A program made the position numbers and the translations under genes. A stretch of DNA of 63,903 nt, filler included, from a bacterium (lineage in GTDB: Bacteria > UBA9089 > CG2-30-40-21 > SBAY01): the NCBI GenBank assembly GCA_040757115.1. It is 6 parts of 6 records of this genome, joined end to end, with 100 filler letters (N's around TTAATTAATTAA, not from the genome) between each part and the next. Parts side by side here need not be neighbours in the genome. Positions count along the whole stretch, not along the records: positions 22,162 to 32,987 come from JBFLYA010000129.1; positions 33,088 to 43,721 come from JBFLYA010000130.1; 4 more parts are not named here. One strand, given 5' to 3'. Under the pieces are notes generated by a model that was not told the DNA's origin, ran no database searches, and saw nothing but the letters and a program-made list of their open reading frames with translations. Position 1 is the stretch's first letter. The number at the start of each line of letters is the position of its first letter. This document shows positions 2,032 through 49,500 of this stretch, piece after piece.

Positions 2032-2047
2032 AAAGTCAAGCGGAAGT

Positions 2048-2108: not shown

Positions 2109-2251
2109 AACCCTAATTGCATGCAAATACACTGTAGCGGGATTTTCCGTGTTTCATCCGTGTTCATCCGTGGCTGAACAGTTACGATTTTTTAGTATAA
2201 TAAATAGCGGTTCCTGGGGAATTGAAATAATAGTTTTTTGTAACAGAAATG

Positions 2252-2637: not shown

Positions 2638-2950
2638 CTCTATCTTTTATCTTTGCGGGTATTGCTCTGCTTGAGGGTTTTCCTCGCAATCTATGCGCTA
2701 TACCTGTATTACCTTCAACCTTAACCCTTTTACCAGCCTTTTTATTTGCCTTTTGCTTAAACCTAAAATATCTGCTGCTTCTGTCTGTTTTAGCTGTTTG
2801 TCCAATACCTTGCAAATTACATGTAATTGCCTCAGCTCCTTTTGATTCAACATGATAATATCCTTTTCTGCCATAACATACTCCTTTTTTGAAAGATATT
2901 ATAGCATCCTTAGGGGACATTTTCATTTTGGTAAAAGGTGACATTATCAT
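2600..2950 (-). CDS. Hypothetical basic protein, C-terminus runs into a MITE
   Basis: 116-aa ORF, no recognised motif. Confidence 0.3.
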   Translation of the reverse strand: MIMSPFTKMKMSPKDAIISFKKGVCYGRKGYYHVESKGAEAITCNLQGIGQTAKTDRSSRYFRFKQKANKKAGKRVKVEGNTGIAHRLRGKPSSRAIPAKIKDRGNYSPRRTRSEI

Positions 2951-4049: not shown

Positions 4050-4913
4050 TTGGAAAAGGTAAGCATTGGAGTAATTGGAGGCAGTGGATTATATCAAATG
4101 GAGGAATTAAAGGAGATTGAGAAAAAACAAGTCCCTACCCCCTATGGTCTTCCTTCTAATGATATTGTCATTGGTAGATTGGGAGAAAAGAAGGTTGCTT
4201 TTTTACCCAGGCATAAAGAAGGACATTGTATTATGCCAACGGAGATAAATTCAAGGGCAAATATTTATGCCTTAAAATCATTAGGCGTTGAGCGGATAAT
4301 TGGCGTAAGTGCGGTAGGTAGTTTAAAAGAAGAATTGAAACCACTGGATATAGTTATTCCAGACCAATTAGTTGACCGAACTTTAGGTCTAAGACAACAT
4401 ACTTTCTTTGGAGAAGGTGCTGTTGGACATATAAGTTTTGCCGACCCTTATTGTCCAGAATTAAATAAGTTATTGTATGAAACTGGAAAAGAATCAGGCT
4501 ACACGATTCATCAAGGCGGAATTTATATCTGTATCGAAGGACCACAGTTTTCCACCCGGGCGGAATCTAATATTTATCGAAAGTGGGGATGTGATATTAT
4601 TGGTATGACTAACATCCCGGAGGCGAGATTGGCGCGTGAGGCGGAAATTTGCTATGCGACGATTGCTTTAGTTACGGACTACGATGTCTGGCATGAAACC
4701 GCAGAAGATGTAACCATAGAAATGGTCATAAATAATCTGATGAAAAATGTCGAGCATGCAAAACAGATGATTAAAAAGATAATTACTCAAGTTCCCGATA
4801 CCCGGCATTGTGTCTGTGCCACAGCACTTAAAGATGGAATAATTACAAAATCTGAATTAATTCCTCAAAGCACCAAAGAGAAATTAAAACTTATAATTGG
4901 AGAGTATTTGTAA
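4050..4913 (+). CDS. mtnP: S-methyl-5'-thioadenosine phosphorylase
   Basis: GVIGGSG, PRH, EGPQFSTRAES, GMT and VTDYD motifs. Confidence 0.93.
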   Translation: MEKVSIGVIGGSGLYQMEELKEIEKKQVPTPYGLPSNDIVIGRLGEKKVAFLPRHKEGHCIMPTEINSRANIYALKSLGVERIIGVSAVGSLKEELKPLDIVIPDQLVDRTLGLRQHTFFGEGAVGHISFADPYCPELNKLLYETGKESGYTIHQGGIYICIEGPQFSTRAESNIYRKWGCDIIGMTNIPEARLAREAEICYATIALVTDYDVWHETAEDVTIEMVINNLMKNVEHAKQMIKKIITQVPDTRHCVCATALKDGIITKSELIPQSTKEKLKLIIGEYL

Positions 4914-4930
4914 GACATAACGATTACCTG

Positions 4931-4979
4931 AAAAAAAAAGGGCAATCCCACTTCCGTGGAAGATTGCCCCTTTTTTTTG
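4931..4979. terminator. Bidirectional intrinsic terminator
   Basis: A-tract, gggcaatc..gattgccc stem, T-tract between convergent genes. Confidence 0.85.
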
Positions 4980-5001
4980 TCTTAATTCCCCTTTTTATTG
5001 T

Positions 5002-6279
5002 CTATCTTGAAATTGTCACTGGACATGGTGAGGGACATTTCGTCCTTATTACTGGACATTTAGTTTGCTCTTCTGGACATCTCGTCCTTATCATCGGACA
5101 TTTTGTCTTTATTACTGGACATTTAGTTTGCTCTTCTGGACATCTCGTCCTTATCATCGGACATTTTGTTGGTTCTTTTGGACATCTTGTCTGAATCACT
5201 GGACATTCAGTCCTTCTCACTGGACATTTGGTTTGCTCTTCTGGACATCTCGTCCTTATCATCGGACATGTGGTCCTTATTGGTTGTTGGGTGATATTAC
5301 ACGGGGGACATTGTGTATCTACAATTGGACATCGGGTTCTTATCTCAGGACATTTCGTCTGAATCACTGGACATTTAGTTGTCACTATTGGACATTTGGT
5401 GTTAATTGGTTCTTGAGTGATATTACACGGGGGACATTCTGTTTCTACAATTGGACATCGGGTTTTCATCTCCGGACATTTAGTCAGCACTGGTGGACAT
5501 TTTGTTTCTGCTTCTGGACAGCGAGTAAGCGGTTGTGGACACTTAGTCCTTTCTACCGGACATTTGGTGTTAATTGGTTCTTGAGTGATATTACACGGGG
5601 GACATTCTGTTTCTACAATTGGACATCGGGTTTTCATCTCCGGACATTTAGTCAGCACTGGTGGACATTTTGTTTCTGCTTCTGGACAGCGAGTAGGCAG
5701 TTGTGGACACTTAGTCCTTTCTACAGGACATTGGGTGTTAATTGGTTCTTGAGTGATATTACACGGTGGACATTCTGTTTCTACAATTGGACATCGGGTT
5801 TTCATCTCCGGACATTTAGTCAGCACTGGTGGACATTTTGTTTCTGCTTCTGGACAGCGAGTAGGCGCTTGTGGACACTTAGTCCTTTCTACGGGACATT
5901 GGGTGTTAATTGGTTCTTGAGTGATATTATGCGGTGGACATTCTGTTTCTACAATTGGACATCGGGTTTTCATCTCCGGACATTTAGTCAGCACTGGTGG
6001 ACATTTTGTTTCTGCTTCTGGACAGCGAGTAAGCGGTTGTGGACACTTAGTCCTTTCTACAGGACATTGGGTATTGACAGGTTCTTGAGTTGGAAATTGT
6101 GGTTCTGGTTCATTAGCTTGAACAACAACAATTCCAGTATTGTTGAACTGTAAGGCTGACTTTAAAGTGGATTTATAGAGTGGAGAATCATTCGCATCTT
6201 CAAAACTGCTGGCTTGTTGAACTCCAAAAGTCAAACTTCCTACCATCACAGCCGTTAACCATAGTAACCGTTTATTCAT
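5002..6279 (-). CDS. Secreted Cys/Pro/Thr heptad-repeat protein of unknown function
   Basis: N-terminal signal peptide, AGGAGG RBS, ~50 Cys in CPxxxT[KREQ] heptads, 168-nt higher-order repeat. Confidence 0.85.
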   Translation of the reverse strand: MNKRLLWLTAVMVGSLTFGVQQASSFEDANDSPLYKSTLKSALQFNNTGIVVVQANEPEPQFPTQEPVNTQCPVERTKCPQPLTRCPEAETKCPPVLTKCPEMKTRCPIVETECPPHNITQEPINTQCPVERTKCPQAPTRCPEAETKCPPVLTKCPEMKTRCPIVETECPPCNITQEPINTQCPVERTKCPQLPTRCPEAETKCPPVLTKCPEMKTRCPIVETECPPCNITQEPINTKCPVERTKCPQPLTRCPEAETKCPPVLTKCPEMKTRCPIVETECPPCNITQEPINTKCPIVTTKCPVIQTKCPEIRTRCPIVDTQCPPCNITQQPIRTTCPMIRTRCPEEQTKCPVRRTECPVIQTRCPKEPTKCPMIRTRCPEEQTKCPVIKTKCPMIRTRCPEEQTKCPVIRTKCPSPCPVTISR

Positions 6280-12197: not shown

Positions 12198-12658
12198 GTA
12201 AGCGTTCAGGTGGTGTAACAAAAGGAGATGTGGAGATTAAGGAGATAGGGAGATATTATTAAAAAAATTGGTAACTATTCACCATTCACAATTTCTTCCC
12301 TAAATTTCCTTAATAATGGTGAATGGTGAATTGTCAATTGTGAATTGTGAATTATCACTCTTCACGGTGTCAAGCAAACCTGGCCCAAGAGTTCGATGCA
12401 CCGCTATAGCGCATCCAATGACTCTATTCGATAATTCATCAAATTTCACTTCGTGCTCTCCGTACCCTTCGTGGTGAATAGTTACAAAAATTGAAATTAA
12501 TAGAAACTAATAGAAATTTATGGAAATTTGTTGTTTTCCCCAATCAATTTCTACCTAATTTCTATAAGTTTCAATCTATTTCTATTATCTTATCTCCATA
12601 TCACTCTTATCTCCTTATCCCCTTTCTTACACTTTTGATATATAGCCTGAACGGTTAC
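12198..12658. mobile_element. IS66-end MITE with a nested MITE at 12271-12485
   Basis: gtaagcgttcagg...cctgaacggttac. Inner element has the 8-bp TSD aaaaattg; the empty site is seen in the copies at 21939 and 51871. Confidence 0.9.
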
Positions 12659-22300: not shown

Positions 22301-22414
22301 ATGCAAAATTACAAATCAAATTTCAAAGAGGAAGTAACAGGGTTTTTCAAAGAGTTGGAGGAATTTGGTAATATCTTTGCTTCAAGTATTTTAACGCTGA
22401 AATGTAGTAGATAG
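22301..22414 (+). pseudogene. Internally deleted four-helix-bundle (IVP-like) gene remnant
   Basis: MQNYKSNFKEE...ELEEFGNIFASSILTLK resembles the N- and C-termini of that family; flanked by heptamer repeats; same 5' part at ~10938-10982. Confidence 0.5.
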
Positions 22415-22626
22415 TTGATAGTTTATAGTTGATAGTAGATAGTTGATAGTTGAAGGACTATAAACCATAAACTATAAACCATAAACTATAAACTATAAAC
22501 GAGTTTTGCATTTTGCTCTTTGGAGGAAATTGATAAAAATAGAGGTTTTAAATACCCGCTTAAAAACTACAGTTTCTTAGTTTTGCAGAACTCTAAATTG
22601 CAAAACACAAAGGAGGATTAAAAATC

Positions 22627-27779: not shown

Positions 27780-28071
27780 GTAACTATTCACCGCAGAGAC
27801 GCGGAGACACAGAGAAAAAATTAAAATCTATTGGTTATACGCTTAATTCCATCTCTTAGAACAGAAACATTAAAATTGATCAATAAACTTATCCTTTTAT
27901 TCATCATTTTTAGATAGGTTAAAAGTTGAGCTTCGTGAATCGGAAGTAGTTGCTCGACTGCTTTTAATTCTACGATAACTTTTTCTTCAACTAAAAGATC
28001 TATCCGGTATCCACAATCTAATTTAAATCCTTTTTTCTCTGTTCCTCTGCGTCTCTGCGGTGAATAGTTAC
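27780..28071 (-). mobile_element. IS66-end MITE carrying the 3' half of a GxxExxY gene
   Basis: Perfect TIRs gtaactattcaccgcagagacgc, 8-bp TSD atttctac, interior near-identical to 30803-31012. Confidence 0.92.
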
Positions 28072-31925: not shown

Positions 31926-32425
31926 AATATCTTCTTATTTTATCACAGATTGAGTATATCTCAATAAAATTCTTTTCCCTCCTGTGATTCAGACACTGGA
32001 GCATCAGACACAAGACTATAGACTCTATTTATGCAGGAAATTAGTGACATTTGGGAAACCATCCTCAAAACTTCACTCCCTGAATTTTTCCTAAGCCTTA
32101 CCTATGTCAGTGACAGTGTCAGTGTCGGTGAAGAAACTCCTTCAACTCATCCAACACTTCCAACTCTTTCTACTCTTTCAACTCTTCCAGCAGAAGCATA
32201 GGCAGGTCTCCCAAGCCTTCATTCTTCTGCAATTTCTGCCCGCTTTAGTCTGAGGTCTAATGTCTATAGTCTACTGTCTGAATCACAGAATATCTTTCCC
32301 CTTTTTCCCTACTTTTCCATTTTCCCTTACTTACACCTGAACGCTTACTCAAAACACTCTATTTATAATCTTGTAATTGCCATCAGGTAAAAGTTCTTTT
32401 TTAAATTGATACTTCGCCAGAAAGG

Positions 32426-32672
32426 GTAACCGTTCACCGCAGAGACACAGAGATGCAGAGAAAAAAATTAAAATCTATTCACCAGAGACAGAAATTTCCT
32501 TTTTTTTGTACATTTCGGGTCTTTCGTTGTTTATTAATCTTTTAATACTTACTTTTGACTAACTGTTTTTAAGCCTTTTTAAACACCGAAAAACGCGAAA
32601 AAGAGGGAAAAAAAGATATTTTCCTCTCTGTTTCTCTGCGTCTCTGCGGTAAAGGATTACCTGAACGGTTAC
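32426..32672. mobile_element. IS66-end MITE with only the GxxExxY 3' tip
   Basis: gtaaccgttcaccgcagagac...ttaaaatctatt...ctgaacggttac. Confidence 0.75.
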
Positions 32673-32807
32673 AAAGCTTTCAATCACGGCACACTCCCCC
32701 GCCGTCCACTGCAACGACTGGTTAAGCATAAAATTTCTCACTGCAATTCTCTTTCTCTTCTCTTCCCTTGCCGAACTATTGTCCATTCCATAATCAAGGT
32801 ACGACCC
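32673..32807 (-). repeat. Truncated attC plus leader in reverse orientation
   Basis: Minus strand gcttaaccagtcgttgcagtggacggcggggg, cut by the MITE; leader homologous to the array leaders. Confidence 0.6.
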
Positions 32808-33400
32808 TACTATTCCCCCTTTTAGGCAATAGATAAATAGGGAAAGATTCTTTCCTCTCCATTATAGCACAATAATTAATTATACGCAACTATTTTTTTG
32901 TCTCAGATCAACAGACAATCACCATTTTGTCAAAACAAAAGATTACCTCATTCATTCATGCCCCCCATTCATTTCCAGATGTTCTGTNNNNNNNNNNNNN
33001 NNNNNNNNNNNNNNNNNNNNNNNNNNNNNNNTTAATTAATTAANNNNNNNNNNNNNNNNNNNNNNNNNNNNNNNNNNNNNNNNNNNNCAAGAATAGTCAA
33101 TGGAGAAATAAATAATCACACAGAGACACAAAGTCACAAAGGAATTGAATAAAACAATAAACCTTTGTGTTCTTTGTGGCTTTGTGTGAGAAAATAAAAA
33201 GGAGATATTTTAGGAGATATTTTAGGGTCAACCGTGAATGTGGAATGCACAATAATTCGGTGAGGCAGAGGAAAAGGCAGCGAATTAAAGCTTTTGTCTA
33301 ACCCTGCGTTGCAGTTGACGGCGGGGGACTGTGCCGTGGTCAGAGTTTTGTGGTCTCTCAAAGAGAAAAATGGGGGACGCACACAATTATCTAAGAACGA

Positions 33401-33531
33401 TTCTAACAAATCGTTGCAGCGGACGGCGGGAGCTAACTGCTTTTCAAAAGTTTGTAGTTTATCAAAGTTTTGTCTTGCTTATAAAGTTTAGTGGCAATTC
33501 TCCCCGCCGCCGCTGAACTCAATCGTTAGGC
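33401..33531 (+). repeat. attC site
   Basis: ttctaacaaatcgttgcagcggacggcggg...ccccgccgccgctgaactcaatcgttaggc. Confidence 0.85.
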
Positions 33532-33655
33532 ATCTTGTCAAAGCTGAAGTATACTATGATGGTGGCGACGAGGTTAGCGCATTTTGGATTTAAACAATTA
33601 AGATTTTGAGTCTGTCCAGTATGATTTGTACTGTAGATACGAACGGTGATGAATA

Positions 33656-33892
33656 GTGATAGGATTTGAGATCATTGGTGAAATTAGAAATGTGGAGATA
33701 ATCGCAACGGGTCAGGGAGTACATATCCGCCGCTATCTGGATCGAACCTATGGCAAGGGACACTGGCGGAAAATGAAAGGTAGAGCAACTGTGCGATTAA
33801 TTGATGATACAATCTGTGAAGCCGAGATACACTGGTTTGAAGCACATGGTATAGGTCGTAAGGATTTCAAAGTCAAAAAGGTGATTCGATGA
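33656..33892 (+). CDS. Conserved hypothetical cassette protein (putative toxin)
   Basis: WRKMKG...AEIHWFEAHGIG; 4-nt overlap with the next gene. Confidence 0.75.
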   Translation: MIGFEIIGEIRNVEIIATGQGVHIRRYLDRTYGKGHWRKMKGRATVRLIDDTICEAEIHWFEAHGIGRKDFKVKKVIR

Positions 33893-34137
33893 GTACATTT
33901 GTAATTTGTATCAACAACGAGAGCAATCCAGCGAGTTTGATTATAGGCAAAGTTTACCAGATTCTGCCAGACGCAGAAGCAAAGGCACATAACATGTTGC
34001 GCATTATTGATGAAGACAAATCCGAGTATGATGGTTATCTTTACCCGGTATCAATGTTCGCACCGATCACTTTGCCAAAGATAGCGGAGAGGGTATTGAT
34101 GGCAACAGGTGAGAGAATACCCCTGTTGTCCCACTAA
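33889..34137 (+). CDS. Conserved hypothetical cassette protein (putative antitoxin)
   Basis: FVICINN..PASL..GKVY..RIIDE..GYLYP; translationally coupled to the upstream gene. Confidence 0.75.
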   Translation: MSTFVICINNESNPASLIIGKVYQILPDAEAKAHNMLRIIDEDKSEYDGYLYPVSMFAPITLPKIAERVLMATGERIPLLSH

Positions 34138-34232
34138 GTGCGATAAGATATTTTAGGGTCAACCGTCAATGTGAAATGCACAATAATTCGGTGAGGCAGA
34201 GGAAAAGGAAAAGACAGCGAATCAAAGCTTTT

Positions 34233-34364
34233 GTCTAACCCTGCGTTGCAGTTGACGGCGGGGGACTGTGCCGTGGTCAGAGTTTTGTGGTCTCTCAAAG
34301 TTTTATCTTGCTATCAAACTTTTGTGGTAATCCTCCCCGCCGCACCTGAACTTTATCGTTAGAC
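34233..34364 (+). repeat. attC site (132 bp)
   Basis: gtctaac...gttagac imperfect palindrome. Confidence 0.9.
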
Positions 34365-34383
34365 AGATGAAAAAGAGGTTTAA

Positions 34384-35733
34384 ATGAAGGCTATATTTAA
34401 GATTCTTTTATGGGTGAGTTTCGTCTTACTCATAGGTGGCTGCGCTGGCGGCAGATTACAAATAACAAAAGCCCAAATGCCACTACGCTCTTTTGAGGAT
34501 ATTCCCCAAAAGGATATTTCAATAGCAAGAGTCAAGCAAGAATTGAGAGAAGGACATTTTGATAGTGTTAAACGAGTGCTGGACGTTATCTCAAAAGAAG
34601 GATACGAAAATGAGATTGAGATTCATATGTATAGAGGGATATTATATTACTATCAAAACAGGTTACAATCTGCTCTTAATGAATTTGAAAAGTCCCTAAA
34701 TCTTCTGGTCCCAACGGTTGAACAAGCTATCCAGAAAGACCTTTATGAAAACGCAGGGTATCTATATTATGACCTCAATGACTATAAAAAAGCAGCGGTC
34801 TATCTTCGCAAATGCAAAGAGTTAGGTGGAGAAGTTGAGGAAGCCGATATTGAATTCTTTGAAAAATTTCAGGGTACTCCTTACCGGATTGAGACCCAAG
34901 ATCAAAGAGCGAACTTAAAGATGGATTACAAAGGAATTCCTATAGTCAAAGGCAGCATTAATGGAAGTAAGGAGCTAAGTTTTATAGTAGACACAGGAGC
35001 GCAGATGACCGTGTTGTCATCAGAGATGGCGAACAAGCTGAAGATAAAACCTCTTGTCTCTGGCAGCAAGGGAGCTGGAGCTGGTGGCGAATTTTCTGTT
35101 GATCTTGGGGTAATCGACTCATTAAGACTTGGTGATGTAATTGTCAGGAATGTCCCTGTTACTATTATTGATTCTAAGGAATTGACATTTAAGCTCTTTG
35201 GGCTTTTGACAATCTTTAAGATAGATGGGGTAATTGGACTTCCGTTACTAAAACAGTTTGATGTTACCTTTGATTACAAAGGCAAGAGACTCATCTTAGA
35301 TATTCCACAGAAGACTGAAGAACCCTCATCCTTTGAAGGCAATTTTTATCTTGTGCGTGATAAGATAATGCTACCCGTAGGCATAAATGGCATTGAAGGA
35401 TTTACATTCATGCTCGATACAGGTGGAGGTGGCGATCATGCTTCTATTACCCCTGAAGGTTTAGAGGAATTAAAGGATCAACAGTTAAAGATTTCTGAGC
35501 AATTAGGTGGAAGTTGGGGTGCTGGCGGTGGAGGAGTAAAGAAGATTAAAGATGTCAAGGATGTCTCCTTGAGAATGTGTGGGTTTGATATTCGGAATGT
35601 AGATCTGCGTGTAGATAAAGACCCTATAAAAGATAAACTCATCGAGATAGATGGTTTTATTGAGAATATGATATTAGAAAACTTCAAGGTAAAGATGGAT
35701 TTTAGAAAGATGCAAATAACATTAGTAGACTAA
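34384..35733 (+). CDS. Lipoprotein with TPR and two retropepsin-like aspartyl protease domains
   Basis: Lipobox LIGGC; FIVDTGA and FMLDTGG; DGVIG. Confidence 0.85.
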   Translation: MKAIFKILLWVSFVLLIGGCAGGRLQITKAQMPLRSFEDIPQKDISIARVKQELREGHFDSVKRVLDVISKEGYENEIEIHMYRGILYYYQNRLQSALNEFEKSLNLLVPTVEQAIQKDLYENAGYLYYDLNDYKKAAVYLRKCKELGGEVEEADIEFFEKFQGTPYRIETQDQRANLKMDYKGIPIVKGSINGSKELSFIVDTGAQMTVLSSEMANKLKIKPLVSGSKGAGAGGEFSVDLGVIDSLRLGDVIVRNVPVTIIDSKELTFKLFGLLTIFKIDGVIGLPLLKQFDVTFDYKGKRLILDIPQKTEEPSSFEGNFYLVRDKIMLPVGINGIEGFTFMLDTGGGGDHASITPEGLEELKDQQLKISEQLGGSWGAGGGGVKKIKDVKDVSLRMCGFDIRNVDLRVDKDPIKDKLIEIDGFIENMILENFKVKMDFRKMQITLVD

Positions 35734-35770
35734 ATTTGAGATGCTAAAGAGAGGTTTAATTTTTTGTTCT

Positions 35771-35902
35771 GTCTAACCCATCGCTGCACCTGACTGCGGG
35801 GGGCTGTGCCGTAATTAGAGTTTTGTGGTATCCCAAGTTTTTATCTTGTTTACAAAGTTTAGTGGTAATTCTCCTCGCAGCAGGTGAGCTTTATCGTTAG
35901 AT
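35771..35902 (+). repeat. attC site (divergent 132-bp variant)
   Basis: tctgtctaac is the exact reverse complement of gttagacaga at the cassette start. Confidence 0.9.
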
Positions 35903-35927
35903 TCAACACTCAGAAAGGAAAGGTATT

Positions 35928-36164
35928 ATGACTGTAACGGTTGAAAAGATTGCAAATGAAGTCAAATTGCTTCAGGAATGGGAGTTGAACGAGTTTCTGG
36001 CCTGGCTTACAGACTACGAGCTTGAACATTTTGACGAATGGGACAAGGAGATTCAACGCGATTCACAGCCGGGTGGACGCTTGCAGGTCATGCTGGATGG
36101 TGTTCGCGATGACATTTCCGCGGGAAGGACTAAACCTCTTGATGAAATCATTAACAACTCCTGA
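35928..36164 (+). CDS. Putative antitoxin
   Basis: WDKEIQRD...GRT pattern; overlaps the downstream toxin. Confidence 0.75.
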   Translation: MTVTVEKIANEVKLLQEWELNEFLAWLTDYELEHFDEWDKEIQRDSQPGGRLQVMLDGVRDDISAGRTKPLDEIINNS

Positions 36165-36402
36165 TTTCTGGAATTTATACTTTTCTTTGCCTCCTGAAAT
36201 CAAATCTCTAGCCAGAAGGATGTATCAATTGTGGAAGAGAAATCCGAGACATCCCTCTCTACACTTTAAGAAAGTTGGTCAGGTATGGTCTATCAGAGTC
36301 GGCGAAGGATTTCGGGCATTGGCCATGAGGGAAAGCGATACTTTCTTCTGGTTCTGGATTGGAAATCATGATGAGTATAAAAGACTTATTGGGAAGTTAT
36401 GA
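36142..36402 (+). CDS. RelE/ParE-like toxin
   Basis: MKSLTTPDFW...NPRHPSLHFKKV..WSIRV..FRAL..WFWIGNHDEY. Confidence 0.82.
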   Translation: MKSLTTPDFWNLYFSLPPEIKSLARRMYQLWKRNPRHPSLHFKKVGQVWSIRVGEGFRALAMRESDTFFWFWIGNHDEYKRLIGKL

Positions 36403-36565
36403 TTCGCGGAGGGTTCGCTGATTAAAGGAATGGAGATATCTAAGGAAGTTTTAGAGTCAACGGGAGATATTAGGGGCATGTCATTGACAGGTCAACCGTG
36501 AATGTGGAATGCACAATAATTCGGTGAGGCAGAGGAAAAGGAAAAGACAGCGAATCAAAGCTTTT

Positions 36566-36697
36566 GTCTAACCCTGCGTTGCAGTTGACGGCGGGGGACT
36601 GTGCCGTGGTCAGAGTTTTGTGGTCTCTCAAAGTTTTATCTTGCTATCAAACTTTTGTGGTAATTCTCCCCGCCGCACCTGAACTTTATCGTTAGAC
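36566..36697 (+). repeat. attC site (132 bp)
   Basis: Near-identical to 34233-34364. Confidence 0.9.
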
Positions 36698-36753
36698 AGT
36701 GTGATACAATTGTGTCTCAGATTTGCGATTGTAGAAAATTAGGAGGATGGACT

Positions 36754-36978
36754 ATGTTGACAAAAATGATTGATGTGCATGAAGTTCAATCTCATTTGCA
36801 AGGGTTGTTATCCCAAGTACTGACAGGTATGGAACTTATCTTTACGGACGGAGATAAACCAGTTGCTCGTCTTGTACCAGTTGCTGCACGAGTGGCAGGA
36901 TTACACGCAGGAGCAATTTGGACAAGCATGGATTTTGATGAGCCTTTACCTGAAGAATTTTGGATGGGAAATATATGA
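36754..36978 (+). CDS. Phd/YefM-family antitoxin
   Basis: KPVARLVP, DFDEPLPEEF; AGGAGG RBS. Confidence 0.85.
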   Translation: MLTKMIDVHEVQSHLQGLLSQVLTGMELIFTDGDKPVARLVPVAARVAGLHAGAIWTSMDFDEPLPEEFWMGNI

Positions 36979-37361
36979 AATTGCTCTTAGATACACACAC
37001 TTTCATCTGGTGGGATAGTGAGCCAACAAAACTTTCGGTACAAGTTCTTGCATTATGCCAGAACCGAGAAAATATGTTGCTGTTAAGCGTCGCCAGCATC
37101 TGGGAAATGCAAATCAAACTTCAATTAGGGAAATTGAAGTTTTCAGTGCCTTTAAAAGAAATCATCGAGACTCAGCAACAGACAAACAATGTTAAAGTGT
37201 TACCTGTTACCTTGCCACATGTGTTGGCAGTGGAGAAATTGCCTGTCTATCATAAAGACCCATTTGATCGTCTCCTGATTGCTCAAGCTACGGTTGAAGA
37301 AGCAGTGCTCGTTACAGGGGACCCGATACTTACCAATTATCCAGTGAAAGTGGTGTGGTAA
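36975..37361 (+). CDS. PIN/VapC toxin
   Basis: LLLDTH, SIWE, HKDPFDRLLIAQA. Confidence 0.92.
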   Translation: MKLLLDTHTFIWWDSEPTKLSVQVLALCQNRENMLLLSVASIWEMQIKLQLGKLKFSVPLKEIIETQQQTNNVKVLPVTLPHVLAVEKLPVYHKDPFDRLLIAQATVEEAVLVTGDPILTNYPVKVVW

Positions 37362-37476
37362 TTGTGTAAAAACTAAATAGAGAATTGAAGTATTAGGAGG
37401 GTCAAACCGTGAATGTGGAATGCACAATAATTTGGTGAGGCAGAGGAAAAGGAAAAGACAGCGAATCAGAGCTTTT

Positions 37477-37608
37477 GTCTAACCCTGCGTTGCAGTTGAC
37501 GGCGGGGGACTGTGCCGTGGTCAGAGTTTTGTGGTCTCTCAAAGTTTTATCTTGCTATCAAACTTTTGTGGTAATTCTCCCCACCGCACCTGAACTTTAT
37601 CGTTAGCC
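37477..37608 (+). repeat. attC site (132 bp)
   Basis: Near-identical copy ending gttagcc. Confidence 0.9.
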
Positions 37609-37638
37609 ACAAACTGCAATTAGAAAGAGAGGTTAAAT

Positions 37639-37899
37639 ATGCCAGAGATTAGTCGATTTTATGGTATAATCATTGGGATGTTTTATGATGATCATAATCC
37701 TCCTCATTTCCATGCTCGGTACGGAAAAGATAAGGCAGCTGTGGAAATCACTACTTTGCGGGTGTTGGAAGGGAAAATTCCTCCCCGATCATTAGGATTA
37801 GTGGTCGAATGGGCATCACAACACCAAGAAGAACTGTTACAGGATTGGGAGTTGGCCAAAAACAATCAGCCCCCCAAAAAGATTATCCCTTTAGATTAA
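37639..37899 (+). CDS. DUF4160-family protein
   Basis: MPEISRFYGI..DHNPPHFHA. Confidence 0.88.
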   Translation: MPEISRFYGIIIGMFYDDHNPPHFHARYGKDKAAVEITTLRVLEGKIPPRSLGLVVEWASQHQEELLQDWELAKNNQPPKKIIPLD

Positions 37900-37912
37900 G
37901 TGGAGGTTTTCA

Positions 37913-38179
37913 ATGATTCATGATGTTGTTTCAGCGGTTTATAAAGGCGGGTACAAGATAAAGTTAACTTTTGATGATGGGAAAAATGGAGTTGTTGATT
38001 TTGCAAAATACTTGACGGCAGGTGGAGTCTTCACGAAATTCAAGGATGTTGAATTCTTCAAGAACTTCACAGTGAATGAAGAGTTGGGTGTCATCACCTG
38101 GAATAATGAGGTAGATGTTGCACCGGAAACACTTTATTCTGAAGCTACAGGGTCTTCTTTGCCAAGATGGATGCAATAA
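37913..38179 (+). CDS. DUF2442-family protein
   Basis: LTFDDG..W.NEVDVAPETLY; usual partner of DUF4160. Confidence 0.85.
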   Translation: MIHDVVSAVYKGGYKIKLTFDDGKNGVVDFAKYLTAGGVFTKFKDVEFFKNFTVNEELGVITWNNEVDVAPETLYSEATGSSLPRWMQ

Positions 38180-38275
38180 CTATAATAGGGAGTATTAGGG
38201 TCAAACCGTGAATGTGGAATGCACAATAATTCGGTGAGGCAGAGGAAAAGGAAAAGACAGCGAATCAGAGCTTTT

Positions 38276-38407
38276 GTCTAACCCTGCGTTGCAGTTGACG
38301 GCGGGGGACTGTGCCGTGGTCAGAGTTTTGTGGTCTCTCAAAGTTTTATCTTGCTATCAAACTTTTGTGGTAATTCTCCCCGCCGCACCTGAACTTTATC
38401 GTTAGAC
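38276..38407 (+). repeat. attC site (132 bp)
   Basis: Near-identical copy. Confidence 0.9.
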
Positions 38408-38436
38408 TAACCACAAAAAAGGTAGAATTACACAAA

Positions 38437-38922
38437 ATGAAAAGATACATTTTTATTGCCTTAATATTAATATTTATTTTATGGGCGATAGGTGGATTAG
38501 CTGTATGGTTATTTTTACCAAATTGGTCCATTCGTGGTACCTTCGGTGATATGTTTGGAGCTATCAATTCTCTTTTTTCTGGATTAGCGTTAGCTGGAGT
38601 GATTATTGCAATACTTCTCCAGAAAACTGAACTTGAACTGCAAAGACACGAATTAGAAATGACCAGAGAAGAACTTCACCGTGCCGCTGAGGCTCAGGAA
38701 AAATCGCAACAAGCACTTAAGCAACAGGTAGAGAATCAAAAACTTTTGGCTCAACTTGAATCCATTAATGCACTGCTTGCTTCTTATGGTGATCAAATTG
38801 AGGGAATGAAGGGAAATAGTACAGTCGTAATGACACTAAAAGAACAGTGTGAAAAGAAGATAAATAAGTTGCGTGAATCTTTGGAAAAAGTACTTTCTGA
38901 CGCAGGGCTAAATTTAGAATAG
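38437..38922 (+). CDS. Two-TM plus coiled-coil cassette protein (N-terminus resembles putative Abi-type membrane proteins)
   Basis: GTFGDMFGAINSLFSGLALAG..LLQ..EL..Q..EL..TREEL. Confidence 0.7.
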   Translation: MKRYIFIALILIFILWAIGGLAVWLFLPNWSIRGTFGDMFGAINSLFSGLALAGVIIAILLQKTELELQRHELEMTREELHRAAEAQEKSQQALKQQVENQKLLAQLESINALLASYGDQIEGMKGNSTVVMTLKEQCEKKINKLRESLEKVLSDAGLNLE

Positions 38923-39110
38923 AAACTTAGAGAAGAATTGGAGTCATCTCCCGAATTGAGAATTAACGCAAGCAGGAAGAAAAGAGAATTGCAAAACAAA
39001 GTTTTTGTCTAATCCAGCGATGTTCCCTGATTTTTATGAGAGGAGGCTCTGACTTGCTTCGCGTGCCCGTGAGTTTTGTCATTATGACCAAATGATGTAT
39101 AGGAGACTAA

Positions 39111-39296
39111 ATGAAATTCAGTGAACTGGTTAGATTATTAGAAGAAAATGGATTTAGAATTGTGAAAGAAAAAGGCTCAATAAGATACTATGGAAAGACT
39201 GGGTGGAATAAAATGGTTCGACTTGATTACCACGGATCAAAGGAAGTTCCTACAGGCACTTGCAATAGTATCCTAAAGGCTGCAGGAATTAAATGA
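39111..39296 (+). CDS. hicA: HicA-family toxin
   Basis: LEENGF...KGS...HGSKEVPTGT..SILK.AG. Confidence 0.85.
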   Translation: MKFSELVRLLEENGFRIVKEKGSIRYYGKTGWNKMVRLDYHGSKEVPTGTCNSILKAAGIK

Positions 39297-39312
39297 CCAT
39301 AAGGAGGATAAG

Positions 39313-39564
39313 ATGATTGAATTACCATATTCATTAGTAATTGAAGCTACGGAAGAACCAGACTATTTTGGTTTCTATTCCCTGGATTTGGAAGGCTTTT
39401 CAGGCATAGGACATTCTGTAGAAGATTGTTTGTACCAGGCTAAGTGGGGAATGAAAGAACATGTTGCTTTACTAAGGGAACAAAGGATTCCAGTCCCTCC
39501 TGAGAACCCAAAAGCTAAGATTATTATTCAGAATGAAAGAAAATTAGATGTGGCAATGGTCTAA
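39313..39564 (+). CDS. hicB: HicB-family antitoxin
   Basis: YSLVIE..DLEGFSGIGHSVED..PVP. Confidence 0.85.
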   Translation: MIELPYSLVIEATEEPDYFGFYSLDLEGFSGIGHSVEDCLYQAKWGMKEHVALLREQRIPVPPENPKAKIIIQNERKLDVAMV

Positions 39565-39618
39565 CAAATCGCTGAAGCTGACGGTGCTTCGCACCGCAGC
39601 TTAGCTTTATCGTTAGAC
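39559..39618 (+). repeat. Short (60 bp) canonical attC
   Basis: gtctaacaaatcgctgaagctgacggtgcttcgcaccgcagcttagctttatcgttagac. Confidence 0.92.
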
Positions 39619-40190
39619 CCTGAGAGGAACAAGAGCATATGTCAAACTTTGAGCACATATTCGAGACCTATAGGAAAGCCGAAGTCAAGAAGTTCACAGA
39701 AATAGCGGACAATATTCGCTCTCTCGATGATCTTTCCTCTCTGCTCTTATGTCTCCTTTAATTATGCTTACTGAAAGAATAAGCGATATACATTTTATCC
39801 AGTATAATCGTCAACGCATCCTTTCTCTATTAACCTGCCTTTTTCTCGTCTGGCTTATGGTCAGGAGCTTTAAAGAGATGCAAACCATTGGTCAGATTTG
39901 TCCAGCAACCAGCTTGATTACATTCAGTAATCTCCTGATGAAGGACTACCTCTTTCCCCATTTGAGCTTACTTCAATTTTTCTCTCCTTTTATTTTTATA
40001 TTAATTTTAACTTTGGCCAGTCCTTCAGGAAGAACCGTATCTTCACGGTATACTATTCTACAATTTTTTTGAATAACTAAAAGATTTTTTTAAGTTTTAA
40101 TCTAAAAAATGGACTATCTTAACCCTAAATTTTAAATGAAGTTAAGGCAATATTAAAAATAAATTGCTATCTTATGCGGTTTTTTATTAC

Positions 40191-40607
40191 TTATTCCGCC
40201 TCAACGGGTGACCTTTTCCTGAACTTAAGCTTGATAAGAAATGTTGAAATCTTACAGGAGCAAATCGTTCTTAATTTGGAAATAATATCCATTATCTGCA
40301 TGCCTAATATAATTATTCCCAAGATTGCAAGGGAGATGAAAACAGTTCCAAATTTAATCGCAGAAGGTGAGTTGCCATAATAATTAGGCAGTGCCTTTGC
40401 AGAGAGCATAATGGCAAATGCCTGCAATGTAATCCATATCCCGCCTATAACCAATAAGGCGATAATTGTCTGTCTTAATACAAAATGCCACCTGTTACGA
40501 TTGCTCCGCCGACGCAACAACAATAATAACTCGTGAACCGGCATCAGTAAAGCCGACAAAAGATAAAATAATCCGCTTATTCCGCTCCCAGGTAGACCCA
40601 CTGCCAT
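40191..40607 (-). CDS. Small membrane protein downstream of the GT2 gene
   Basis: GLPGSGISGLFY plus three hydrophobic segments. Confidence 0.65.
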   Translation of the reverse strand: MAVGLPGSGISGLFYLLSALLMPVHELLLLLRRRSNRNRWHFVLRQTIIALLVIGGIWITLQAFAIMLSAKALPNYYGNSPSAIKFGTVFISLAILGIIILGMQIMDIISKLRTICSCKISTFLIKLKFRKRSPVEAE

Positions 40608-40608
40608 T

Positions 40609-41694
40609 TTAGTGTCCTTTCTCATACATGGCAAAACGCCGCCTCAATATTAATTCACTCCACATTGCCTCTAACATAAAAATACTGTTAATAGTGCGCA
40701 GGACGAAAAATGAGGAAATGCTTGTTAAAATCAACCCCCCTTCTTTCTTACTGCGCATGTGTAAAAGTGCCGGTATCAAGACTGCCGGTGCATCAATTAC
40801 ATACCCAAAAAGAAAAAGAGGGTTTGCAAATAAAATAGCCAATAAAGGCAAAAGCAGAAGATAGGCCACCGATGCAAAAATTCCATCCCACATAGCTATG
40901 GCAATAAGTAGACGCAGGTAGCGAATCCTTGCTATTTTGCTCCAATGCACGCACACATTTTGTATAAAACCGTGTGACCAGCGTTTTAGTTGTTTTTTCA
41001 TAAGTGAAAAATTATGGGGTTCAATAGGATAGGCAAACGCCTCAGGAACAAATACTACTTTGCGGCCTAATTCGTAAAAACTCCATGTCAAATCCACATC
41101 TTCTGCCAGAGTCCTATTAGACCAGCCTCCGTTTTGCTTTAAAATATCTGTTCTGTAGGCAGAAAAACAACCGGAGGAAATGAGGGGTTTTTCATAATAA
41201 TCCTGTATCTGCTTATAAAAGGAAAAAGCAAAGAGATATTCAATATAACGGCCGCGTTCCCAGACCGTCTTTACATAACGAGGGAGCACAAAACCGCAGA
41301 CTGCCGCAGCATTACTTGCCTTAAGGGCATTCAGCATTTTCTCCACTGCATCAGACTCCAAAATAGTATCAGCGTCAATGGCCATAGTGAATTGGGTAGT
41401 TACATCCTTTAAAGCGTAGTTCTGGGCACCTGCCTTTGAGCCAGTGTTATATGGCGGCCTGATAACTGTAACTCCAAGTTCAAGTGCTACTTCAAAAGTA
41501 TTATCAGTAGAACAGTCATCCACCACTATAATTTCATCAGGGGGAACTGTTTGATTCTTTAAACTCATTATTGTATCGGCTATGCTCTTTTCTTCATTGT
41601 ATGCCGGGATTATGACAGTCAAGTTACTCAATTTTTTTACTGATAGGAAATTGCTTTTTTGAGTGTTTTGGGTATTATATCCATTTGTGCCCAT
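40609..41694 (-). CDS. Processive GT2 glycosyltransferase (IcaA/PgaC-like)
   Basis: IPAYNEE, VDDCS, DAD, AED, QLKRW motifs plus C-terminal TMs. Confidence 0.88.
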   Translation of the reverse strand: MGTNGYNTQNTQKSNFLSVKKLSNLTVIIPAYNEEKSIADTIMSLKNQTVPPDEIIVVDDCSTDNTFEVALELGVTVIRPPYNTGSKAGAQNYALKDVTTQFTMAIDADTILESDAVEKMLNALKASNAAAVCGFVLPRYVKTVWERGRYIEYLFAFSFYKQIQDYYEKPLISSGCFSAYRTDILKQNGGWSNRTLAEDVDLTWSFYELGRKVVFVPEAFAYPIEPHNFSLMKKQLKRWSHGFIQNVCVHWSKIARIRYLRLLIAIAMWDGIFASVAYLLLLPLLAILFANPLFLFGYVIDAPAVLIPALLHMRSKKEGGLILTSISSFFVLRTINSIFMLEAMWSELILRRRFAMYEKGH

Positions 41695-41920
41695 TGTGAG
41701 GATATTTTACCACAAATTTTATCCTTTGTCAACAAAAAATTCAAAAAAATTCGACTCTTTTAAAAAAAATCCAAAAATTAGTATCGAAAATCTGCTCGAT
41801 TAGGACAAAATCATAAAAATGGACATTGCCAATAGTGATTTTGGACACACTTATCCTCCGGAAGGTCCTTGGAAGGTCATAAAAGAAAGGACTAAAAAGT
41901 AGGTGAGAATTATGAAGGGT

Positions 41921-42077
41921 ATCATCTTCCCTGCCAGAAACCATTATAAAACCATCTCTTCGTCCCTGGCATATTCTTCAGGATTTCCTCAATATCTTCT
42001 TTTTTGCAGATAATCTCTAACATCCGCATATTACCACCACATTCCGGACACTTCAATGGGTCGATACAAAAATATCC
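41921..42077 (-). pseudogene. IS91-like transposase C-terminal remnant
   Basis: IDPLKCPECGGNMRMLEII..KEDIEEIL; second decayed copy at ~12868-12925. Confidence 0.5.
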
Positions 42078-42705
42078 TAAAATCTTCTATACAAACCAAT
42101 GACTTTCCCCGCAATCTTTATATCCTCTGCAGATACCAGTATTGGTTCCATCTTAGAATTCGCTGGCTCTAATCTCACCAATGATGTGCTTTCACGATAA
42201 TAATATTTCACTGTAGCATCTCCTCCCACAAGTGCTACAACTATATCCCCATTATCGGCTATTTTTTGCCTTCTAACAATCACATAATCCCCTGACAAAA
42301 TCCCTGCTTCAATCATACTATTCCCTTCTACCTTAAGTGCAAAACACTTAGTATTGCTGACTAAATCTTTACCTAAGATAATCTCACCCTCAATATTCTC
42401 CAAAGCCAGTAATGGTAGCCCTGTCTGAATCCTTCCTACTTTTGGAACCTTCACATACTCATCTTCTAATCTCTGTCTTTTATGCTCAACCAACAATTCT
42501 ATAGCCCTGGGTTTGGTTGGGACCTTCCTCAGATAGCTTTTCTCTTGTAACGACTTGAGATGGGCAAAAGGTGCACAAGGAGATTTTAGTCCCAAATGAC
42601 TCTGTATCTCCCTTACCGTAGGTGGGTAACCACATCTCTGGATATTCTCCAGACAAAAGTCTAATACCTGTTGTTGTTTTTCGGTTAATTTAATTCCTTT
42701 GGCAT
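42077..42705 (-). pseudogene. lexA: LexA repressor frameshifted near codon 5
   Basis: LTEKQ..GYPPTVREI HTH and S24 domain (GNSM, ATVK). A tandem taatt duplication at 42686-42695 puts the RBS-linked ATG out of frame. Confidence 0.8.
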
Positions 42706-42924
42706 GCTCATCACCTCCAATTATTATAATACATATGTTCTAATTAGAATATACCATATAATCTTCAGAATGTCAAGTAATTTTTTGGAGGGTGTTGAAA
42801 AAGTCGTTTTTTAGGAAAGGGTAGTTTTTGGAGGGGTGAATTTTCTAAAAACTGCAAAACTGCCTCCCTCTTTGAATTTAAACCTCTCCTTTTTAACCTT
42901 TCTTTTTATTTTTCTTAATCTTTC

Positions 42925-43721
42925 GTAACTATTCAGCACAATTATTCGATCTGTGCGGTTAGAAGAGAAACTTCCCCGCATTAAGGTTAAAGACGTACTC
43001 TCCCTTCTCCGCCGCTGGCGGGGGGATTAAGGATGTGAAAATCTTCTCAACTACCATTTCAATACAGGTCGCAACTATTGCATAAACTCTGGCAATTGAC
43101 CTTCGAACAAGAGATTCAGACCCTGAATTGAACCAATTCCATTCTTCTTGCATGTCGAAATATAGCTCCGAATCCGGCAGAATATTTTAGCCCCTTCCAG
43201 CGACCTGAAACAACCAGAAATCTTTTGCTGAACTTTAGTCATACGAATATCATTTGGGTGTGGCTATTCTTAAACGACAGGAGATTTATTGTATCTCCTA
43301 TGGTTATGTAAAAAAGAGTTAATAAAAAAGTTCCCTCCGGGTATAGATATAAAGTAGCCATCTTAATATCTCTATCAGAGATAGTCTATTTTCAGTTATC
43401 TTTGTGTTCTTTGTGTCTCCTTTGAGAACTTTGTGTTTAATAATGTAGGTATCCTTAATTTAACCACAAACTTTACGAAGTTTTTCACAACGCTCACAGA
43501 GATATAGACTTATAATGTAATGTTCTTTATAAACAGATTCCTTAAAAAGGAACAGGAAGGCTGTTTTAACCGTCGTCCAAAAGTAGCCACACCCATATCA
43601 TTTTCACTCTGGTTGTTAGTAAAAGGAACATCTTTGTCTCCCATAAACCTTAATGTCTCATTCTCATAGTCCCTTAGCCGTTCCAGAAGATTATGTGCCT
43701 TTGTCTTCTTTGGTCTGCCCC
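42925..43721 (-). mobile_element. IS66-family (ISBst12-like) element, right part; transposase interrupted
   Basis: [57 protein letters not shown], stop at 43075; terminal gtaactattcagc at 42925. Confidence 0.88.
43256..43594. mobile_element. MITE with GGGTGTGGCTA TIRs inserted in the IS66 transposase
   Basis: gggtgtggcta / tagccacaccc, 9-bp TSD atatcattt. Confidence 0.9.
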
Positions 43722-44000: not shown

Positions 44001-44201
44001 GTAACCGTTCAAGTAGTCCTTTACCGCAGAGACGCAAGAGTTCGCAGAGAAGACATAGAAATAAAGTAACTATTCAGCCACTGATTAACACGGATAAAAA
44101 AATAAAATCAGTGTTTCATCTGTGTCCATCTGTGGCTGAATAGTTACCAATAAATTTTAATTTTTTCTCTGCGTCTCTGTGCCTCTGCGGTGAACAGTTA
44201 C
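44001..44201. mobile_element. GxxExxY-derived IS66-end MITE with a nested MITE (44066-44147)
   Basis: 8-bp TSD gctaccag; retains atagaaataaa and aataaattttaa gene tips. Confidence 0.88.
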
Positions 44202-49290: not shown

Positions 49291-49500
49291 CTAAACTTTG
49301 GCAAAAAATATAAGAGACGACAGGAAAAAACTTAAAATTTAAAACTAAAAATGCAAAACTCGTTTATAGTTTATAGTGTATAGTTTATAGTGTATAGTTT
49401 ATAGTGTATAGTCCTTCCACTAACAACTATCAACTATAAACTATCAACGATTTTTAGTTTTAAGTTTTTCAAAGAAGTTTGCAAATTTGCCAAAGTTTAG
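49291..49500. mobile_element. MITE with CTAAACTTTGGCAAA TIRs
   Basis: Perfect 15-bp TIRs, flanking ttattat duplicated, internal tatag heptamer arms. Confidence 0.8.

Follow-up and report, generated by a model that had tools for sequence, protein, structure and literature searches.

In the sedentary chromosomal integrons exemplified by the Vibrio cholerae repeat (VCR) arrays of Vibrio, and in clusters of attC sites lacking integron integrases (CALIN), cassettes of one or two genes, many of them toxin-antitoxin pairs, follow one another on the same strand. Their attC sites bear the inverse cores RYYYAAC (R'') and GTTRRRY (R'), fold as the bottom strand and recombine at G|TT, and one dominant attC type occurs in many copies; homology between attC sites normally ends at R''. 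The way in which cassettes acquire attC is described as unresolved (PMC8352920). The present analysis concerns a 63,903-nt stretch of genome assembly GCA_040757115.1 (GTDB lineage Bacteria; UBA9089; CG2-30-40-21; SBAY01), called the window in its full length, which contains a cassette array resembling the VCR and CALIN arrays in these properties. Unlike in those arrays, conservation continued beyond R'' into a segment of about 90 nt, here called the leader, which 42 of the 56 attC units scored possess and which accompanies several attC classes throughout the phylum. The leader is a cassette-proximal attC flank in the integrons of this lineage, and what is new is a phylum-wide conserved extension of attC homology, about 90 nt past R'', that is homologous in sequence to the ends of RAYT-type genes (REP-associated tyrosine transposases; REP, repetitive extragenic palindrome). 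We consider it somewhat probable that the leader is a REP-derived, purine-rich flank, co-inherited with attC as a block and homogenised within a large chromosomal cassette array.

REP repeats and their REPIN doublets, together with RAYT (TnpA-REP) transposases, have been described as 'REPtrons' (PMC8266576; PMC3116915; PMC3337134); in the portion of PMC8266576 drawn on here, integrons are mentioned only as an analogy of hairpin recognition, with no physical link. As in REPtrons, the present genomes contained putative Y1/HUH genes bordered by inverted repeat copies, a (G)TAG foot on the 5' side that reads GTAG in some copies, many extragenic repeat copies and, in relatives, palindromic doublets. 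Unlike in REPtrons, the leader keeps one intact arm and is fixed beside attC, the protein has a DnaA-C-like helix-turn-helix (HTH) and scored under the NCBIfam RAYT cut-off, and the nearest genome has at least four loci, not one. Other elements, the IS1111-attC insertion sequences (IS) and the group IIC-attC introns, target attC (PMC3001079). The leader resembles these, which are discussed in models of cassette formation, as a foreign mobile sequence at a fixed place relative to attC. Both are kilobase-sized, encode their own enzyme and interrupt attC, whereas the leader is 90 nt long and non-coding and abuts R'' without interrupting the site. A search of a limited literature library yielded no paper describing such an attC flank, joining REP/RAYT with attC or describing integrons in Desantisbacteria.

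The window consists of contigs of some 11 kb joined in series, with linkers (N..TTAATTAATTAA..N) at 11026, 22106, 33032, 43766 and 54473, and the leader+attC series sits on contig 33089-43721, which is an integron cassette array. The open reading frame (ORF) listing and Pfam analysis of this contig revealed a same-strand run of one- or two-gene units in the order of two ORFs with no Pfam match, TPR/aspartyl protease, ParE-like pair, Phd/PIN, DUF4160/DUF2442, DUF6082 and HicA/HicB, each unit being closed by a site with the inverse cores GTCTAAC ... GTTAGRC. Since no integrase gene was found among the ORFs of contig 33089-43721, as against the intI-bearing chromosomal integrons, the window part of the array is CALIN-like. 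Six complete attC sites of 132, 131 and 60 nt were present in the window (cores R'' RYYYAAC and R' GTTRRRY). In the minimum free energy fold of the bottom strand (38186-38410), the site at 38276-38407 paired GTCTAAC with GTTAGAC and its L arms paired with bulges, at a z-score of only -1.5.

Five near-identical leader+attC copies, reported in the initial annotation at 33225, 34156, 36490, 37399 and 38198, were recovered at these positions on the + strand. As described there, they lie behind unrelated genes (here the two ORFs with no Pfam match, the ParE-like pair, Phd/PIN and DUF4160/DUF2442), and the first copy is truncated. In this copy the leader was found to lack 6 nt of the purine tract and the attC to stop after 68 nt, a separate complete attC (33401-33531) coming next. 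The repeat family D5 comprised five copies of 63 nt in the window with 81-100% identity, and family D1 four copies of 225 nt with 90-100% identity, to which the leaderless protease attC showed 61%. The leader start had been placed at GGGTC, but conservation begins 10-15 nt further 5', at the foot GGAGATATT(TT)AG, and the full units extend over 33201-33363, 34145-34364, 36432-36697, 37388-37608 and 38183-38407. The diverged homologue noted on the minus strand is real (32685-32820, 74-76% identity) but belongs to another, neighbouring contig. A seventh, decayed, type-B-like leader copy with a decayed attC could be recognised at 38940-39013.

The nearest genome, G001, was used as the main comparison; all comparison genomes are fragmented metagenome-assembled genomes (MAGs). 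G001 contained 43 matches to the 211-nt unit and 22 to the leader alone. Leader states were scored in 56 attC units with at least 110 nt of upstream sequence, drawn from 33 G001 contigs and the window. The leader was full and of type A, the type of the window copies, in 23 units, of type A but truncated at its 5' side in 2, diverged in 17 (e.g. type B, GGGGTCAGACCTCGAATTGAGAATTAAC...AAGAAAAGAAAAAAGACGGCGGAGTGCAGCTTTTTCTAAC) and lacking in 14, which gives the 42 units with a full, truncated or diverged leader. The truncated leader L081 is cut by an IS-like end that also interrupts a gene in G001:C734, and other truncated leaders are split by a miniature inverted-repeat transposable element (MITE) with a 9-nt target duplication. 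A small inverted-repeat element with ends TAAGCGTTCAGGT.../...AGCTGAACGCTTA was seen in three leaders at the identical spot, with AAGACAGCG duplicated (L193, L026); it looks like a MITE that targets the leader. In L087 (G001:C397, about 2700-2740) a type-A attC is broken at nt 74 by another hairpin element, with ends CCACCTGTGCGATTAGAC..., which also occurs just upstream of the C490 attC (L138, G001:C490, 2470-2640).

The leader is not confined to one class of site. In other genera, families and orders of the phylum, a leader of about 85 nt with 75-80% identity stands directly 5' of R'', and the attC sites that bear it are quite different from type A and 50-61 nt long; attC lengths fall into classes of 50-61 nt and 131-137 nt. 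The sequence-only leader model R1 matched in 16 of the 24 phylum genomes (57 matches in G001, 31 in G008, 17 in G006 and 14 in G004; another leader-rich relative, G010, has 13 leaders) and gave no match in five genomes outside the phylum. An exact-pattern scan of species-representative genomes returned 48 loci. The leader profile fits 25 of them, about 23 as full leaders, and the MAGs concerned are labelled mostly Candidatus Desantisbacteria or 'bacterium', with a few others. The earlier picture of a leader welded to five near-identical sites was thus replaced by that of a phylum-wide flank on several attC classes. A type-A leader+attC unit, 94% identical, was also observed in a different family of the phylum (L096, G018:C27, 7596-7822), which suggests cassette exchange or mis-binning.

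Adjacency to attC was counted by an R-box criterion combined with reading of the sequences, a fold-based attC scan and a strict complementarity filter having been rejected after they misclassified obvious sites. The fetched contigs gave 78 leader profile matches, 46 in G001 and the window and 32 in relatives. A complete attC came next in 36 of the 46 (33 by the criterion and 3, with R' GTTAT, by eye); the remainder comprised four truncated attC sites, five contig ends and one fragment. Among the 32 leaders of relatives, 19 were followed by both R boxes and about 4 by an attC with a mutated R'; 4 or 5 kept only R'' before a gene or other DNA, 2 lay at contig ends and 2 were cut. As to whether the leader always precedes attC, the full leader does so nearly always, on the R'' side, but its first 15 nt also occur elsewhere. 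Seven leaders from relatives and G001 (L133 1946-2060, L203, L202, L125 3630-3740, L135, L102 and L199) retained R'' YCTAAC with the remaining attC missing; a gene or unrelated DNA began immediately after CTAAC, making this a recurrent R'' junction.

Related genomes contain perfect intergenic palindromes in which each arm is made up of roughly the first 25 nt of the leader. Its 5' 30-45 nt match the inverted repeats that flank RAYT-like Y1 transposase genes, with the (G/T)TAG foot and short tandem duplications included, a similarity consistent with the REP/HUH-type boundary at GGGTC that had been postulated. A 323-aa RAYT-like gene in G005:C35 is bordered by GGGGTCAGACCTCGAAAGCAGAATTAACT ... 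AGTTAATTCTGCTTTCGAGGTCTGACCCC; its product reached 50 bits against Pfam Y1_Tnp (cut-off 23), has an extra DnaA-C-like HTH and found its best NCBIfam model in the REP-associated tyrosine transposase, at 68.5 bits with a cut-off of 80. Inverted GGGGTCARACC repeats flank RAYT-like genes in G005:C35, G014:C31, G009:C65 and G006:C93, both ends being seen, and the G001 homologues (C335, C615 and C194) have a like arrangement; the gene ends are often duplicated in tandem. GTAG precedes GGGGTC at three of the gene ends (G014:C31, G001:C335 and C615) and is the foot of some leaders (L069_7762, L076, L099_8475); the window copies have TTAG. The left end of G001:C335 agreed with a G001 leader at 34/36 positions, duplicated foot included. 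The left ends of G005 and G014 agreed with a G009 leader at 28/29 and 32/34 positions and with G001 type-B leaders at 27/30, and that of G001:C615 with another leader subtype at 19/20. Copies of the REP core numbered 48 in G001, 17 in G002 and 16 in G005, with none for a reversed control, and many of the G001 copies lie on contigs without known arrays. Taken together, the matches between leaders and RAYT-like gene ends, the shared duplications and the dispersed REP core indicate that a RAYT-like system's REP-type repeat makes up the leader's 5' half. Perfect doublet hairpins of the repeat were found in relatives only, and the idea of a decayed right REP arm within the leader was rejected, the hairpin not being significant.

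Leader and attC behave as one unit, as the initial annotation had proposed. Type-A leader and type-A attC occur together in 23 of the 56 units, and the same cassette could be compared with and without the block. The DUF4160/DUF2442 cassette recurs in G001:C490, where it is 97% identical and lacks the leader+attC unit; the identity begins at GTTAG|CC after a different attC and stops 3 nt past the stop codon, exactly at the start of the unit in the window. No synteny of G001:C490 with the flank was found within the window. Stand-alone leader+attC cassettes were seen in L018 (12 nt of content) and L085 (R' fused as GTTAG|GGTC), and blocks directly after R' also at the joints 35900>38193 and 35900>37400 in runs X1 and X2. 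From the pair with and without the block and from the stand-alone copies it follows that the block is gained or lost as a unit.

As noted before, the protease cassette has perfectly complementary ends: reverse complementation of gttagacaga (34358-34367) gives exactly tctgtctaac (35768-35777). In three of the four leader-closed cassettes, the TTRRRY at the cassette's own start is mismatched to R'' GTCTAAC at one position, which fits replacement or homogenisation of the R'' side independently of the cassette start, the numbers being small. The differing R' ends had been taken as a sign of a special process, but IntI crossover at G|TT suffices for them, as the comparison between genomes confirms. 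Over the DUF6082-HicAB stretch the window matches G001:C734 at 98% identity, up to a break within R', at CGTTA|; from this break and that in C490, the crossover is placed at G|TT, with the last six R' bases belonging to the next cassette.

Under the preferred reading, the flank joins a REP-type repeat, about 45 nt long with the foot GGWRRWATT-(G/T)TAG followed by GGGTCARACC-KYGAAT..., to a purine-rich spacer. The spacer is unstructured, varies in length and has GACAGCGAAGCAAAG as its last bases, immediately 5' of R''. Flank and attC would be inherited jointly at the cassette 3' end, and IntI crossover at R' G|TT would move whole cassettes. Cassette ends would be homologous from the REP foot to R', and recombination among them, which we infer to be homologous recombination, would homogenise the 210-225-bp block behind unrelated genes. 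Mosaic units were present: six type-A attC sites had another leader or none, the similarity starting 4-13 nt into the site, and three type-A leaders preceded other or hybrid attC sites (e.g. L074_1147, L084_2143 and L069_9019). Recombination between homologous cassette ends is therefore sufficient to account for the near-identity of the copies. The flank may act in cis at the DNA level, as a REP-type site beside the recombination hairpin or as a mark of attC-gene joining; a role of the leader as RNA is less likely.

Several observations weigh against this co-inherited REP flank. Between orders, sequence identity stays at 75-80% over all 90 nt, above the expectation for a neutral fossil, so some function beyond the one named exists. 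Homologous recombination is inefficient at 75-80% identity and explains spread among close variants only. The mean identity of type-A units was 0.92 in the window, 0.92 in G001 and 0.91 between the two; these equal identities within and between genomes give no sign of ongoing genome-specific homogenisation. The REP part of the leader folds poorly (mean z -0.70, with 5/33 below -2), no close RAYT-like homologue was found with this query in G008 (31 leaders) or G010 (13 leaders), and no array joined to an intI gene was seen in the fragmented MAGs. A short ORF over the leader core, with exactly 9 codons and a stop in 35 of 49 distinct leader versions and with interchange of TAA and TGA stops, would fit a role in RNA or translation.

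The initial annotation went further and proposed HUH-type copying of leader+attC onto genes. The boundary match and the gain or loss of the block as a unit agree with it; active copying is plausible only. Spelled out, the (G/T)TAG foot would be cut in single-stranded DNA by a RAYT-like HUH enzyme, which would join or swap in the REP-spacer-attC block 3' of arbitrary genes, each of which would then become an IntI-mobilisable cassette. The 5' edge of the block equals the left end of RAYT-like genes including the short tandem duplications, which recur at six gene ends and at leader edges (window 33201-33229; L084, L076, L083, L091, L071 and L195), and three REP subtypes of G001 leaders parallel three RAYT-like left ends (C335, C615 and C509). 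One cassette exists with and without the block, its breakpoint at the block edge, and the stand-alone blocks are possible donors. However, no right-end REP follows attC, so the block is not a REPIN or an IS200/IS605-like unit; no RAYT-like gene is present in the window, and none stands beside an array in the contigs examined; only 4 of 18 Y1 loci have the arm motif within 1.5 kb. The RAYT-like query matched in 8 of 16 leader-positive and 2 of 8 leader-negative genomes, a weak association, and the leader-rich G008 and G010 gave no match. The NCBIfam REP_Tyr_transpos score of 68.5 is under the cut-off of 80, and RAYTs are not known to move cargo. Active building of cassettes in this way is, on balance, possible but doubtful. 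That two single-strand-hairpin machineries cooperate, a RAYT-like HUH enzyme attaching the REP-spacer-attC block to genes and the integron integrase mobilising them, is unlikely.

In either case, attC comes with a flank whose outer edge appears to be the recognition end of a different DNA-hairpin enzyme. The leader thereby links two DNA-hairpin machineries and bears on the origin of gene cassettes, and it offers a concrete junction (the (G/T)TAG foot), a candidate enzyme and natural pairs with and without the block. If true, HUH attachment would be a long-sought route of cassette making in the chromosomal integrons of this phylum. Even as a fixed REP relic, the flank indicates that attC homology can reach well past R'', and it provides a lineage marker for the cassettes of uncultivated groundwater-type bacteria.

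The stand-alone blocks invite another explanation. Vibrio arrays hold paralogous non-coding cassettes that are gene-less, highly repeated and conserved between species; for these, a selfish nature or a use to the integron has been proposed and gene conversion invoked (PMC1382264). A selfish gene-less leader+attC cassette might likewise multiply through IntI and become fused to upstream cassettes by loss of their attC or by recombination at the pseudo-core TTAGGG. The Vibrio precedent, the empty cassettes L018 and L085 and the joints in X1 and X2 accord with this, as do seven leader cassettes with less than 150 nt of other content. Such gene-less units, bounded by two IntI crossover points, are a minority and most units follow genes; unlike in the Vibrio non-coding cassettes, the conserved segment lies mostly within gene-bearing cassettes, between gene and attC, and has recognisable homology to a transposase end. 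None of the 23 type-A units showed an attC remnant between gene and leader, the conserved block starts some 10 nt before TTAGGG, and repeated precise loss of whole attC sites is unlikely. We regard the selfish cassette as very improbable.

The leader is, by prediction, unstructured and not a structured RNA family. Rfam gave no relevant match for it at the gathering threshold or in E-value mode. The covariation sought in the initial annotation was not detected, RNAalifold returning 0 pairs on 24 diverse leaders, and the folding z-score of a single leader copy was -0.81. A promoter and terminator scan predicted no site in any leader, and its counts were not above those of shuffled sequences. Three further candidates were rejected: an ORF through attC is accidental, attC lengths falling in all three modulo-3 classes; a link to reverse transcriptase fails in G010 and G014, which have leaders but in which RVT_1 was not found; and no insulating influence of the leader on attC folding was computed, its deletion taking the pairing probability of the R box from 0.355 to 0.325 (n=30, p=0.37).

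The short ORF over the leader core raises the possibility of an expression element. In known integrons, ORF-11 in attI1 and the cmlA leader peptide are short ORFs that aid the translation of cassettes and lie upstream of the gene served. The present mini-ORF resembles them as a very short ORF near a recombination site in the cassette transcript, but it comes after the cassette gene, with 45-50 nt between it and attC, and one leader subtype lacks it. A translated mini-ORF of 9 codons (consensus M-N-I-E-F-T-I-V-R), together with the A-rich unstructured tract, might act on polycistronic cassette RNA, and could do so by loading ribosomes or by countering polarity ahead of the attC hairpin. The start is TTG in 34, GTG in 11 and ATG in 1 of the 49 versions (46 in all), CGG and CGA interchange as the stop codons do, and one version gains ATG through a 2-nt insertion. 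SD-like (Shine-Dalgarno) GGGG/AGGG/AAGG motifs lie 7-9 nt upstream, and among 38 cassettes that bear a leader and have an ORF of 50 aa or more, 36 are in sense orientation. On the other side, G001 type-B leaders lack the ORF (five sequences could not be anchored), nine versions read open and three start with TTA. Codon positions vary evenly with no third-position excess, nucleotide conservation extends 45 nt beyond the stop codon, and the first half of the ORF is the REP arm, also conserved at RAYT gene ends where it has no such role. The leader also occurs in gene-less cassettes, and no RNA structure or alternative structure for attenuation was predicted, which leaves the leader-peptide attenuator with the short ORF in 35 of 49 versions alone. 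An expression element is accordingly a distinctly unlikely account of the leader.

The near-identical copies could also be a product of assembly, the initial annotation having named this as a possible refutation. Collapsed or chimeric repeats of the metagenome bin would then have created the gene-to-leader junctions. The window is made up of short contigs placed end to end, sequencing depth in repeat bins is 10-200 times that in unique parts, and the cassette order is not verifiable from contigs. Record 1 of the contigs of the public run X1 (702 nt, 0 differences) spans 33503-34204 and crosses the gene-to-leader junction at 34146, and record 5 extends 30 nt into the leader at 36490. Since an independent contig bridges the junction at 34146, such junctions are not peculiar to one assembly, and 16 genomes, as well as public records of other assemblies, have a like architecture; an artefact is extremely improbable. 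In X1 record 7, the DUF4160/DUF2442 region (window 37579-38176) had a depth of 129, against about 330-350 in neighbouring cassettes, and its contig runs on for 834 nt absent from the window. This cassette probably occupies more than one context in the sampled population.

Integrases were surveyed in the same genomes. IntI matches above the TIGR02249 cut-off were found in 7 of 24 phylum genomes and 0 of 14 control genomes. Of the ten genomes with an IntI match at E <= 1e-40, nine have leaders; seven leader-positive genomes have no such match, all of them fragmented MAGs. In G001, IntI fragments lie at contig ends, and attI-like cores GTTAGGG and GTTAGCC are present in G005 and G008. Some IntI proteins of 380-460 aa have a second, N-terminal Phage_int_SAM_4 domain, seen as two matched stretches. 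This domain showed no correlation with the presence of leaders and was discarded as a leader binder: the IntI of G014 (317 aa) lacks it in a genome with leaders, and G005, G007 and G009 have it with few leaders. A cassette start TTAGACTTACAAGAGAGCGTAAGATATTACTC..., followed by AAGATA-rich repeats with a period of about 21 nt (L120, G008:C16, 3040-3218), recurs in G008 immediately behind the attI core, and behind many attC sites in G006, G008 and G011 (e.g. L130 9690-9800).

The features of the series and related loci are collected in Table 1. The hairpin sequence of 33089-33200 is found ahead of 14 type-A leaders of G001 and the window.

Table 1. Coordinates of leaders, attC sites, cassette genes and related elements (window positions unless a locus is named)
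Feature	Position	Strand	Basis
Gene-less cassette content; imperfect hairpin of CACAAAG-type units	33089-33200	+	
Leader copy 1; foot tandemly duplicated (GGAGATATTTTAG x2); 6-nt deletion in purine tract	33201-33295	+	
Type-A attC truncated to its first 68 nt; R'' 33296-33302	33296-33363	+	
Complete attC of other subtype, R'' TTCTAAC, R' GTTAGGC; leaderless	33401-33531	+	
Two-ORF cassette; ORFs small (78 and 82 aa) and overlapping, no Pfam match	33656-34137	+	
Leader copy 2; gene junction bridged by X1 contig	34145-34232	+	
Type-A attC; R'' GTCTAAC 34233-34239, R' GTTAGAC 34358-34364	34233-34364	+	
TPR + aspartyl-protease cassette gene; leaderless cassette	34384-35733	+	Pfam
Protease-cassette attC; 82% identical to type A; no leader upstream	35771-35902	+	
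Two-ORF cassette; second ORF ParE-like	35928-36402	+	Pfam
Leader copy 3; degenerate repeated feet 36432-36488, core 36489-36565	36432-36565	+	
Type-A attC	36566-36697	+	
Phd-like antitoxin + PIN-domain toxin cassette	36712-37361	+	Pfam
Leader copy 4	37388-37476	+	
Type-A attC; R' GTTAGCC	37477-37608	+	
DUF4160 + DUF2442 cassette; 97% identical to G001:C490	37639-38179	+	Pfam, genome comparison
Leader copy 5; starts 3 nt after end of identity to G001:C490	38183-38275	+	
Type-A attC; R and L boxes paired in the bottom-strand fold	38276-38407	+	
DUF6082-like cassette gene	38437-38922	+	Pfam
Type-B-like leader remnant ending in R''-like GTCTAAT; remaining attC decayed	38940-39013	+	
HicA/HicB-like pair	39111-39564	+	Pfam
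Short 60-nt attC, last of the contig; leaderless	39559-39618	+	
Diverged leader (32729-32820) + first ~45 nt of attC (32685-32728); cut by GGTAAC-type hairpin repeat	32685-32820	-	
Inverted-repeat element in leader	L193 (G001:C769) 566-2680		
Inverted-repeat element in leader	L026 1447-1601		
Two-SAM IntI	L121 (G008:C109) 4329-5576	-	
Two-SAM IntI	L120 (G008:C16) 1516-2880	-	
Two-SAM IntI	G009:C4, G005:C43, G007:C324		

The window was also rich in long intergenic inverted repeats (27780-28071, 32425-32661, 44066-44147, 12254-12502, 1145-1390, 22405-22500 and 49338-49472), the arms of which start with GGTAACYRTTCA and continue in units of 7-8-nt periodicity (CAGAGACG, CACAAAG, GTTGATA). GGTAAC ends were found near other Y1 transposase genes as well, in G001:C509 and G008:C424, and the GGTAAC-ended inverted repeats probably form a second REP/RAYT family. 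On the 3' side of the cassette series, a glycosyltransferase gene and a LexA-like gene occupy the opposite strand. The latter (42077-42595, minus strand) encodes a LexA-like repressor 2.5 kb past the last attC, and the palindromes ACATATGTTC and GTTCTAATTAGAAT upstream of it (42700-42760) are possible LexA boxes.

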